Assembly: GCF_002571385.2 (NCBI RefSeq)
Contig: NW_019218353.1
Location: 100,004 to 164,003, forward strand
Origin: Stylophora pistillata
Taxonomy: Eukaryota
Length of the DNA: 64,000 nucleotides
Direction of reading: 5' to 3'
This document shows, piece after piece, positions 2,542 to 7,014 of this stretch. A program made the translations under genes and the position numbers. How positions within the stretch are numbered: position 1 is the first letter of the stretch; every line of letters starts with the position of its first letter. The notes below the pieces were generated by a model. It saw only the letters and a list, made by a program, of their open reading frames with translations. It made no database searches and had not been told where the DNA came from.

Positions 2542-3095
2542 TTGCGCACGCACAATTCACGAGTTAAAAAGGGTTTATCTAGGAAACTTTTGCACAATTG
2601 GTTAGGACCATACAGGATAGTGGAGCAATCATCTCCCGTTCATTTTCATTTCCGCACTGATACTAATAAGAAAGTTACCTTTGCCGTGCATGCAAATCGA
2701 ATGAAGCCATTTATCGATCCATCTTTACGACCAATTGAACCTCCACTAGTGGATGACCCTAGTGAGCCTTATCTGGATGAGTCTGATATTCCAGATGACT
2801 GTTTTGAGTCAGAGGTTCTTCTCAATAAGAATGTTAGTCCTAAACCGCCAGTTTCAGATACTACTAATTCAAGTTCACATTCAGACAATCAGGTCCAGCC
2901 TTGTTCGGATTCCTCAGAGAAAGCAACGACAGAATTTTTCAAGCGGAACGAATTCTTAAATCTCGTAAAAAGAAAGGCAAAATGGAATACCTAGTTAAGT
3001 GGCATAACTTTCCCAGAAATCAGTCTACTTGGGAACCGGAAGAAATTATTTTAGATAGACGACTTGTTGATAATTTTAACAATTCGAAGAACTAG
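2542..3095 (+). pseudogene. Gypsy integrase C-terminus (GPY/F) followed by a chromodomain, frameshifted near 2920
   Basis: [26 protein letters not shown]...VHANRMKPF; second frame [39 protein letters not shown] matches the chromodomain pattern (YLVKW...TWEP). Confidence 0.9.
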
Positions 3096-3355
3096 CTCCC
3101 ACGTAATCAATTTATTTCTATTTTGTTCTTCTCCAGAAATTTCAGAATCATAGGCAAAGATTTTCTGTTTTCAAATTGAATTAGGGAGTTTTTGTCGTTG
3201 ATGAGGATTAATATTGTTGTCTTGGTTAGTGGCCACCTTGCTGTTGATAAGGAGGTTGTTGCTGCTACTGCTGCAACACGAATTAATTCTCTTGTAGTCA
3301 ACTCATTCCTATTTTTGTTATCCTCCAGGAACTCTAAGACTGTATACAAAGATTT

Positions 3356-5829
3356 TTGTTTTTATATCAAATTAAAAGATTTTGGGTAAATGGATTCCAG
3401 GCTCGCGTCCTGATCATTGCTTTATCTCATATTGCCTTTGTTATTGTTCAGTTTTGTGTGACACATGCTCAAAATTTTGACTCCCCCATGCAGAAAGTAG
3501 AATTTTACCCCGCCCCGTTAATGATTGCTCATTCCCCTAAACCGCTTACCCCTTATACTGAGACAAAGTTTTTGAATACTCACACAGTCTTTAATTTTAC
3601 CGAAATGGAGAGTACTTTTTCTATGAGAAATACATCCTGTTCTGCCCCTACAGGAAAGTTTTTTGATCAATTACTCCTGACAATTTGAGGCTTCGAAAAG
3701 GTCATTCGGCGACTTCTTTCTTTGCCAGGCTTTTCAACCCTAATGGAGTGCGACACATATTCGCCAAGGTATTACCAGTTTATGGTAGGAAAAAAGTCTC
3801 GAGAATGTTGTGTCTATAAGAGCTCCATTTCTGAATGCAAAACTTAGGCGTTAAAGTTCTGTCGCGGTCTGTCAGTTGACGAAAGACAGTGGTTATGAGG
3901 ACAGAGTCGCACGCGACGTTCGAATTGGATGTGTCACGCAGGTGTTCTAGGTATTTTTCGTGCAATTTGGACTGGGACAGGACACAAATCTCAAGACAAC
4001 CATGTTAAGAGCCTTAAAGCCACTCTGAGAGCTCTGACTTACGCTATGTCTATTTCGCAAGCTATGATGCGAGTTCTCGACGGAAAGATTGTTTTTTTTT
4101 TTCAAAATTACTGATCAGATGAACAGCAAACTAAACTTTTTGTCTCAGGATTTAAAAATGGTCCAAAGTACCTTTAATGACTGGCAGAAACAGCTAAAAA
4201 ATTTGCCAATTCAGCCAAATGCCGCGAAGGAATGACAATTCAGTTTCTCTCTAAGTATACTGCCGAAATTAATCGTGCTTTTACCACATTTCTAAGACTT
4301 TTTGAAATCCAAGATACCTTGAGTCAGATATACCATCTACATGAAAAATCATTAGTAGGCTATTCTGATTTACCTAAGTTTATGTCTTCCCACTTGTCTG
4401 CCAAACTTTCTGCTGATCATCCATTGAGGTTGACTATAACAGCATTGGAACAAGGTTTGTCTGTTCTGGCTAGCCCAATGGTCAATGTCGAACACAGCGG
4501 TCAGGATTTAACTGTCGATATTTTATTGTTAGCACCAGAGATTGCAGATAAAGACAGGTTCTGCGTCGTACAACATTTGACTCCACTTAAGTTTAATATT
4601 TCGGGAAAATGTTTTTCAGGGCCTGTCCAACACAAACACCTCGCTTTAATTAATTGTCCAAATGCAAGGCAGGTAGTCTCTTTAGATGGATTAGATAGGT
4701 GTTTTAGAAGTCAAGTACGTTTCTTATGCCCTAAAAATGTATTAAAGATAGTTTCTAGCTTGCAATGGTTAGGTTTTGCTTGCAATCCAGACCTGAAACT
4801 TTCTTTCCCGCGAAACCATGTGTGGAGGCAGTGTGGCCGAGTGGTTAGAGTGTCGGACTCGTAATCCGCCGCTCCCGGGTTCGAGTCCCACCCTGACCAC
4901 TGGATTTGTTTCACGGTAGCCCCGAGTTCAGATCCTTGGCCACCCTTGTAAATAGCCAACTGGTTTGCCTCTGGCCAGTTGGGGTTCTTATGATGTGATG
5001 ATGTTATGATGTTATGTTCAATTTAGACCATTTGTTTCATTTGTTTGCAAGGACCACAATGGAAACTACTGGTTCACCAGTAACTGTGTAATTCTATACA
5101 AAGAGTTTTAAACCATCAACCTACTTCGAAGTACGACCATATCCACCCATTGGCTCATCTTGGAGGCAGATATTTTCTCTCCACCACTTCTGGAACTTTG
5201 GCTTTGAGCAATGCCGAGCAACTTAACATTTCTCCATTGGCCATCTATAACTTACCTTGCAACGTTAACTTCATTGGCATGGAGACTAGTTTGGGCACTT
5301 GTCCCTAAAGACTAATGGTATCATTACCTTTATTTCCAACAGACACACTTTCATATGTTCAGTGGGATCCCAACTAAGATGATTTTCCTACATTGGAGTT
5401 ACATCATAAGTCACTGACCATCCCACCACCTATCAAGATTAATCATACAGTGATCGACGAGTTGTTCCAGTGGCACTTTGCAGACAGTTTTGATTGATCA
5501 GATAGACGAAACTACTCAGTTCACTTACATCAAATATATTGCTTTAGTTGCACTTGGTCTATCAGTGGTATATTTCATTGTTCTGTATTCTTTGCCGGTG
5601 CATCTCCAGAATATCTGTGCGACACTCCACACCAGCCAGTCCACCTACCTTGCCAACAGCAGTTGCAGAGAGTCACCAACATAAAAATTGCACACATTGT
5701 TCAAAGCGCAGAAGGATCAACCGACTGAAAACAACATCCGCAGAAGAAAGTCGTACAACACACAAACCCGGAGAGAAAAGAAGTGAAGATTATCCAACAC
5801 TAGTCATTCAAGGAACTGAACTGAACTAA
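3356..5829 (+). pseudogene. env-like class I fusion glycoprotein (F-type), with stops/frameshifts and a SINE insertion
   Basis: Hydrophobic signal-like segment VLIIALSHIAFVIVQFCVTHA; furin site RTRR at 3908-3919 followed by hydrophobic SNWMCHAGVLGIFRAIW; heptad-like helices; Cys-rich region 4560-4790; TM segment YIALVALGLSVVYFIVL near 5535-5590; lies between pol and the 3' LTR. Confidence 0.75.
4820..5109 (+). mobile_element. tRNA-derived SINE inserted into env
   Basis: A box TGGCCGAGTGG and B box GGTTCGAGTCC; AAACCAT duplicated at 4813-4819 and 5110-5116; env reading resumes after it. Confidence 0.85.
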
Positions 5830-5872
5830 ACTATTTCTATTTCGATAATGAATTATATAATAACTTTAACTT

Positions 5873-6388
5873 TTGGTTGATTTTTCCCGAATATTAGATG
5901 AATTAACTGCCATCCAGCTAGCGTGGGTTAGCAGGTTGTTCGCAACCTTTAAACATCGATGTGAGAGTCAGCCCCTAGAACAGGTCACTCCCGTATTTCA
6001 TGTAAACCAATATTTTTCATGGCAGACATTCGATTTATTTTTAAGTTTCTTTTCCGGCCGCGGACGTGCCATTGATTGGGACACTGATGACCTAGTTGAG
6101 TTTGTAAATATCAGCCAATACTTCATGGTTCGCGAACAGTTCTTAACTCATGTCTTTCGGGCCCCATTTCTGATAATTTTTACCCCTTGTACGAAGAAAA
6201 TCAGCTTTGAGCAGTAATGTTCACTTTGAAAGTGAGGAATTACCTTTCAGTAGCCCGTAGCCTTTGAGTTCACACGTCGCGCGAGTACGAGGCAATTTTC
6301 GATTTTGATGATCTGTTATTAGCAGATAACACAGACCACTTTAGGCAGTTAGTTAACAACCGTTTGACTGGGTTGCAACCAGACTGAT
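5873..6388 (+). pseudogene. Accessory ORF between env and the PPT, possibly a divergent BTB/POZ-like fold
   Basis: LAWVSRLFATF...FSWQTFDLFLSFFSG...DDLVEFVNISQYFMV resembles the BTB helix pattern LAaxSxYFxxmF...FxxllxfxYtG...nvxellxxAxyl; frameshift near 6185. Confidence 0.45.
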
Positions 6389-6540
6389 AGGTCTAAATTA
6401 AATTAATTTAAAAAAAAAAAAAAAAGAGAAAACAAACCACAACAAAAATTAATTATTTTGTATTAGATGAGTTAAGTTTTCCATGTAATCTTTCCCTACC
6501 GTCCGCATCGAGGATGATGCTTAATTTAGGCGGGGAGGAA

Positions 6541-7014
6541 TGTTGTAGAGCATTTCCAAGGATTGATATTTCAAGTATTTTTTAGCTTCCCCTTGTGTTT
6601 TATTAAGTCTCGCCTTTTCGCCCCTACGTGCTATTTTGGTAGATCTATAGTTTTGATCATCTATTTTTAGTGTGTGCTTGAACTTGGCTCAGTTCTTACC
6701 ATGCTAGACATTTTAATCACTTGTTAGGGTTGAGGATAACTAGTTTGCTAGGTGGTCATGTTTGGGTTGGTAAAACTGACCTTGAGTTTTACCCACACTG
6801 AATATCCTGTTTTGGAAATTCCCATGGTCGGCTAACCCAAACATGCCTGTGATTTTTACATTAAGTGAGAGGGCACTCCTTGCTGAAGTTAGAAGAGAAA
6901 TAGCTGTGGTAGTAGAAGGTAGTAACAACAATAGAAGAGAAGAGAATAAAAGAAAAGTATTTGTCTTGGTACCTTTCGTTAATTCGTCCAAGCGAATGGT
7001 AAAAGCCCTCAACA
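6541..7014 (+). repeat. 3' LTR (~474 bp)
   Basis: Follows the PPT, TGTTG...CAACA inverted ends, AATAAA near 6945. Confidence 0.75.

Follow-up and report, generated by a model that had tools for sequence, protein, structure and literature searches.

A degraded Ty3/gypsy element with a chromodomain-tipped integrase and a predicted F-type env gene in the genome of the stony coral Stylophora pistillata

Features of the locus

The window, i.e. the whole stretch of 64,000 nucleotides that was analysed, contains on its forward strand the 3' part of a retroelement: an integrase tail that ends in a chromodomain, a degraded env gene, a polypurine tract and a long terminal repeat (LTR) (Table 1). The original prediction, made from the DNA letters, had placed such an element of an early-branching animal at positions 2542 to 7014. 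The host is a stony coral, and the integrase tail with chromodomain, the RTRR motif, the transmembrane segment (TM), the polypurine tract (PPT) and the LTR were all recovered by Pfam, tblastn or inspection of the sequence. The end of the element at 7014 stands, while its start within the window moves to about 2565.

Table 1 Features of the element in the window
Feature	Position	Strand	Evidence
Integrase C-terminal tail (GPY/F-type SH3 and p58_C region, acidic linker)	2565..2936	+	Pfam Integrase_p58_C, E 4.4e-6; DNA similarity of the copies begins at 2565-2569
C-terminal chromodomain of pol, group I type by sequence, cage F/W/F, in another frame than the integrase tail	2937..3095	+	Pfam Chromo, E 1.4e-16
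Pol-env spacer with two diverged copies of a pyrimidine-rich tract (3103-3183, 3294-3374) ending in CAG	3103..3374	+	75% identity over 83 nt
Env pseudogene, predicted F-type	3390..5830	+	tblastn with natural homologue P0005; predicted fold of P0005 matches paramyxovirus/pneumovirus F
Env signal-like segment	near 3428	+	Part of the env pseudogene
Env basic cleavage motif RTRR	3908-3919	+	Sequence
tRNA-derived SINE-like insertion within env	4813..5109	+	ARAGORN, tRNA-Thr-like 4827-4898; other copies lack the insertion
Env TM	near 5530-5600	+	Part of the env pseudogene, follows a helical, Cys-rich ectodomain
Polypurine tract	6528..6540	+	Sequence; same tract precedes the LTR in L042, L044, L036 and L032
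3' LTR, 474 bp, TG...CA	6541..7014	+	Sequence; LTR search of the genome

The integrase tail lies in the frame 2542-2991, which scored 27.1 bits against Integrase_p58_C (cut-off 27) and additionally gave a weak match to SH3_Tf2-1 (GPY/F-type, E 0.035). The chromodomain was detected in the frame 2868-3092. The reverse transcriptase (RT) part, RNase H and integrase core of the same element were located upstream of the window (L059:5833-7983), so that core and tail of the integrase are about 4.5 kb apart, with an assembly gap between them. A 5' LTR and gag were not found in the 19.8 kb upstream of the window element, 3.5 kb of which is N. In the spacer between pol and env, the tract ending in CAG is a possible splice acceptor for env.

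The env gene had been described as an open reading frame. Its identity as env was confirmed, but the gene is a pseudogene. The natural homologue P0005 (714 aa) aligns to 3428-4822, 5111-5476 and 5490-5582 at 60, 61 and 45% identity (tblastn), and against this protein the window carries eight in-frame stops as well as frame breaks. The SINE-like insertion of 297 bp, flanked by a 7-bp target duplication, interrupts env further. Other genomic copies skip 4820-5109, and reads and one contig skip 297 nt at this place with an ambiguity of 7 nt.

Copies elsewhere in the genome

The genome (398 Mb) was searched for copies and 35 stretches were examined. The LTR at 6541-7014, which the original prediction had proposed as a probe, retrieved at least 41 places, namely the window and 40 others with 85-93% identity (353 candidates, 40 scored). 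A search with the env piece yielded 24 matches from 29 candidates and one with the integrase tail 13 of 13, each including the query itself. By these counts, LTRs of the family number in the dozens to hundreds, and internal fragments between one and two dozen.

Chromodomain, env and the same LTR occur together at four single loci (L042, L036, L034 and L040), which is the linkage that had been predicted. The pol order PR-RT-RH-IN was found across L031, L036, L038, L042 and L059, giving a full gene order of PR-RT-RH-IN-chromodomain followed by env, PPT and LTR. In P0085, a natural relative of 1427 aa, RNase H, integrase, p58_C, Chromo and env are present in one frame; the closest solved structure to its pol is Ty3 Gag-Pol (E 2.7e-56). 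Hence, the conclusion holds that chromodomain integrase, env and the LTR belong to one element. Env with signal segment, ectodomain and TM is linked to pol and LTR, in agreement with the operational definition of an errantivirus as a Ty3/gypsy element that bears env.

Four-bp target duplications flank four of nine other LTR loci. A primer site starting with TGG follows the LTR in L033, L043 and L071; compared to the tRNA-Ala 12-mer of PMC13524379, the site in L033 differs at two of 12 places, and the exact pattern is absent. Every copy examined in the Stylophora genome contains stops, frameshifts, deletions or gaps. The LTR pair of L034 shares 86% identity over 476 columns, indicating that the family is old in this genome. 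The proposed infectious potential may therefore apply to the past or to relatives of the element, but not to the copies examined here, all of which are broken.

Env gene and its predicted fold

Relatives of env are numerous, with 81 proteins in one search and 685 representatives at E <= 0.001 in another. Named ones stem from Acropora and Exaiptasia, the latter including one named 'Envelope protein' in UniRef; the homologue of Acropora millepora is 61% identical over 207 aa. Among 15 full or long homologues, Pfam detected no env family at E values up to 1 (Baculo_F, Fusion_gly and Gypsy env were absent), the window env fragments did not match any env family either, and a profile search of PDB sequences with env gave nothing below E 0.28.

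The assignment to the F type is based on structure prediction. An AlphaFold2 model of P0005, built with 150 natural sequences, reached a pLDDT of 76.6 and a pTM of 0.57. When compared with the PDB by Foldseek, every row listed was an F protein of RSV or a paramyxovirus, with RSV F as best match (E 1.6e-7), at low TM-scores of 0.2-0.3 of the query. VIA-align of the model to hPIV3 F resulted in Z 9.9 and an rmsd of 5.0 with 295 aligned residues, and the top 12 rows were all F proteins. In a BFVD search, baculovirus F ranked second (E 3e-11). Both paramyxovirus and baculovirus F, the comparison suggested originally, were hence matched by the model. These results support a predicted Glycoprotein F-type fusion fold for the protein encoded by env, the model being that of a homologue about 60% identical to the window sequence. 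The likeness to paramyxovirus, pneumovirus and baculovirus F extends over P0005 residues 37-557 of the predicted fold, whereas sequence identity is 7-13% and the Stylophora env is encoded by a retroelement.

A loose pattern detected a basic cleavage site in 23 of 24 rows covering this position, out of 32 rows in the alignment, and 16 ectodomain cysteines are nearly invariant. Hydropathy of P0005 (means of 19 residues) peaks at residues 9 and 631, corresponding to the signal segment (1.89) and the TM (2.02). The segment after the cleavage site reaches 0.47 at best and, because it is weakly hydrophobic, the label 'fusion peptide' is based on its position.

Selection and RNA

Codon changes were separated into shared ones, found in two or more copies, and private ones; codons changed more than once were not counted. 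For the F1 part of env, pN/pS was 0.05-0.10 for shared and 0.46-0.58 for private changes, while the values for pol were 0.08-0.11 and 0.41-0.59. When CpG sites were excluded, the shared changes in env of eight copies were 21 non-synonymous and 49 synonymous compared to 157 and 58 private ones (Fisher p 2.6e-10). Purifying selection acted on env as the family multiplied: since the shared changes are mostly synonymous and the private ones nearer to neutrality, the gene was kept functional during multiplication. In endogenous retroviruses, an env kept functional during multiplication is taken as a sign of spread from cell to cell. By analogy, this suggests that the coral family also spread between cells.

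Raw reads of three RNA runs covered the env bins at a depth of 0-6 on both strands, a value taken without the baseline of a silent stretch, and few reads reached 99% identity. The LTR bins were deep and strand-biased (up to 264 vs 15). Identity of these reads was mostly 90-95%, indicating that most of them originate from other copies.

Shared deletion of the env N-terminus

One deletion junction is common to eight places on seven contigs (8 of 19 matches). In it, the equivalents of window positions 3118 and 3908 are joined, so that the env start, the signal segment and part of F2 are missing. A spliced-out intron was rejected as explanation, since neither strand of the window shows GT-AG at the two ends. 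The assumption that the env-deleted copies form one daughter lineage was rejected as well (AU p 0.0037, six rows vs nine), and the number of label changes on the trees did not fall below that of shuffled labels (98 and 48 of 500); these trees were built from short, partly gappy rows. Given this scattering over the trees and the lack of splice signals at the ends, a single deletion was probably transferred between sub-lineages when co-packaged RNAs recombined. Relaxed selection on env was not seen in the deleted copies, in which shared changes outside CpG sites were three non-synonymous and 17 synonymous. The matching pol test with four deleted copies was not significant (p 0.16).

Chromodomain type

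The chromodomain in the window retains the aromatic cage F/W/F, and all three places are aromatic in seven of the ten natural proteins examined. Based on these residues, it can be assigned by sequence to the group I (classical) retroelement type. From the presence of the chromodomain, targeting of the element to chromatin may be assumed.

Compared to PDB sequences, the best matches of the window chromodomain were CBX7/CBX8 (E 3e-14). In the ranking against solved structures, 19 Polycomb/CBX sequences (E 3e-14 to 7e-12) precede CDY (1e-9) and HP1 (1.5e-8). The lead of Polycomb over HP1 is smaller for the P0085 chromodomain (5e-16 vs 1.4e-12). The closer resemblance to Polycomb/CBX than to HP1 was obtained from a comparison without chromovirus chromodomains and, as vertebrate chromoviruses carry a similar C-terminal motif, it is a lead. 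Among the top 30 of 141 Chromo matches, searched for a host Polycomb gene, an HP1-like host domain and other families were found and no clear Polycomb.

Comparison with known elements and alternative explanations

A chromodomain-bearing clade of errantiviruses was described from Cnidaria, Mollusca and Annelida (Chary and Hayashi, eLife 2026, PMC13524379), and the anthozoan elements Ahya_1, Aint_1, Cgra_1 and Dlin_6 are listed there both with ENV_F (Supplementary file 1) and with 'Chromodomain' (Supplementary file 4). The combination of chromodomain integrase and F-type env, which the original prediction regarded as novel, is consequently not new. Like these four elements, the Stylophora element features a Ty3/gypsy pol with C-terminal chromodomain and a separate, predicted F-type env after pol in an anthozoan host; LTRs of 400-600 bp in several of the published anthozoan members are a further similarity, and the tRNA-Ala primer type of Aint_1 and Cgra_1 may be another. 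The published anthozoan elements are intact, whereas the Stylophora family has decayed in its genome. In the same study, the cnidarian chromodomain clade was placed basal to chromoviruses, and insect errantiviruses were split from 'ancient errantiviruses' by the RT tree and the RNase H bridge (RNase H plus 'mini' domain bridge, defined in its section 7). A Stylophora assembly yielded 0 POL and 4 ENV hits in the published screen, and no Stylophora element is listed in 15 of its 16 cnidarian rows. No closer report was found in the literature searched, with subscription journals and Repbase outside the search.

Chromoviruses with group I chromodomains (MAGGY, Tf1 and vertebrate elements; PMC3350952) share the chromodomain at the integrase end and the three cage aromatics. 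Group I is defined there by the aromatic cage, and the MAGGY chromodomain is described as binding H3K9me2/3 and directing integration, whereas the likeness of the Stylophora chromodomain is one of sequence. Chromoviruses, including those in the strict sense, lack env; in the Stylophora element, it is linked to pol. The insect errantiviruses (Drosophila gypsy, ZAM and Idefix) resemble it in the order gag-pol-env and in an F-type fusogen with furin site, which in the Stylophora element is a predicted one. However, they have no chromodomain, and Pfam families that were derived from insect and baculovirus F do not detect the Stylophora env.

Taken together, the window very probably contains the degraded 3' portion of a Ty3/gypsy element of the coral, whose integrase ends in a chromodomain and whose env is predicted to be of the F type. 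The element likely belongs to the published chromodomain 'ancient errantivirus' clade, judged by architecture, host group and env similarity. The patchwork at the window locus, with its integrase split by about 4.5 kb, a SINE in env and the 5' LTR and gag missing, might be taken for chance neighbours: an element resembling a chromovirus, nested at one site with a host gene or env-bearing element unrelated to it. Chance nesting of unrelated parts is, however, refuted by the linkage at several loci: separate contigs show this order again, and P0085 has it in a single natural reading frame, which leaves this explanation a negligible probability. It is also very improbable that the env remnant was domesticated as a host gene. 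The RefSeq model LOC111342570 (uncharacterized protein, Stylophora pistillata; P0033) begins with the window frame 4181-4822, covers part of env and carries an NCBI gene name, but eight stops, frameshifts and the SINE lie in env, its private changes approach neutrality and its RNA depth is the low one given above, including the few reads at 99% identity.

A less remote, though still unlikely, explanation is that the element represents a lineage separate from the published clade, which gained its own chromodomain, perhaps from a host Polycomb gene. The ranking of the 19 Polycomb/CBX sequences above CDY and HP1 would fit such a gain, as would the outlier elements with chromodomains reported in section 8 of PMC13524379. 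Against it, the element agrees with the published anthozoan ones in its architecture, in the class of its host and in the type of env, and may do so in the primer type, and the smaller Polycomb lead of P0085, together with a ranking in which chromovirus chromodomains had no part, weakens the argument from the chromodomain.

Proposed cycle and significance

In the ancestral active element, LTR-driven RNA would have been primed at the tRNA-Ala-like site. Env was presumably translated from a separate, probably spliced, message and secreted; cut by furin at R-x-R-R into F2 and F1, it would have acted as a class I fusogen. By analogy with Drosophila gypsy, particles may have moved between cells until they reached the germ line or stem cells. 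The chromodomain of the integrase likely recognised H3 tails carrying methyl-lysine, and insertion, with duplications of 4 bp, may have been biased toward silent chromatin. Copies with a deleted env N-terminus likely multiplied by being packaged together with env-complete helpers and recombining with them.

A more specific scenario is conceivable but rather unlikely: the integrase chromodomain would be of Polycomb type and read H3K27me3 instead of H3K9me, an infectious retroelement would thereby have directed its insertions to chromatin silenced by Polycomb in germ or stem cells of the coral, and env-truncated copies would have spread as passengers of env-complete helpers, one deletion being distributed over several sub-lineages. 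If the reading of H3K27me3 were true, we would know of no earlier example of a retroelement integrase directed to Polycomb chromatin, and such an integrase might become useful for directing insertion.

The main text of PMC13524379 does not contain the terms Polycomb, HP1, aromatic, H3K27 or Stylophora. Beyond that text, the Stylophora family adds three points: selection indicating a need for Env during the multiplication of a coral errantivirus, an env deletion that probably moved between sub-lineages, and a chromodomain that may be Polycomb-like.

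Coding organisation and decay of the env gene

In the ENA proteins P0085 and P0240 (1427 aa), a single reading frame joins pol to the F-type env, with the signal-like segment located after the chromodomain and before the ectodomain. In several copies in the coral genome, the env N-terminus as far as the furin site was lost through a deletion joining the equivalents of window positions 3118 and 3908. The junction is identical at stretches L031 (two places), L036, L038, L042, L044, L050 and L063, and the copies carrying it do not form a single clade.

More distant env-bearing families of this same genome were found at L048 (contig C1414), L049 (C295) and L046 (C105), with protein identities of 32-46% to the env homologue P0005. 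Chromodomain-bearing ORFs of a second multicopy family (L076, L078, L080, L081, L083, L084, L085, L091 and L093) lie in a conserved context, which differs from that of a gypsy integrase.

Other repeats in the window

The segment with inverted arms resembles a DNA transposon whose ends are repetitive. The direct repeat represents either a recent duplication or an assembly artefact.

Further mobile-element remnants and repeats
Feature	Window position	Details
hAT transposase C-terminal dimerisation fragment	8174-8479	Pfam E 1.3e-11
Inverted arms of 20-bp units	10585-17211	~6.4 kb apart
ORFs between the inverted arms	11196-11855; 15229-15912	
LINE-like endonuclease/RT fragments, several	24630-33262; 59016-60300	judged by eye
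Direct repeat, near-identical	53276-56643	copies 2608 bp apart, plus partial third copy

Transcription of the LTR family

RNA reads matching window 6504-6965, mostly at 90-95% identity, were abundant and strand-specific for the LTR family, which suggests that solo LTRs may drive host transcripts as promoters or provide their 3' ends.
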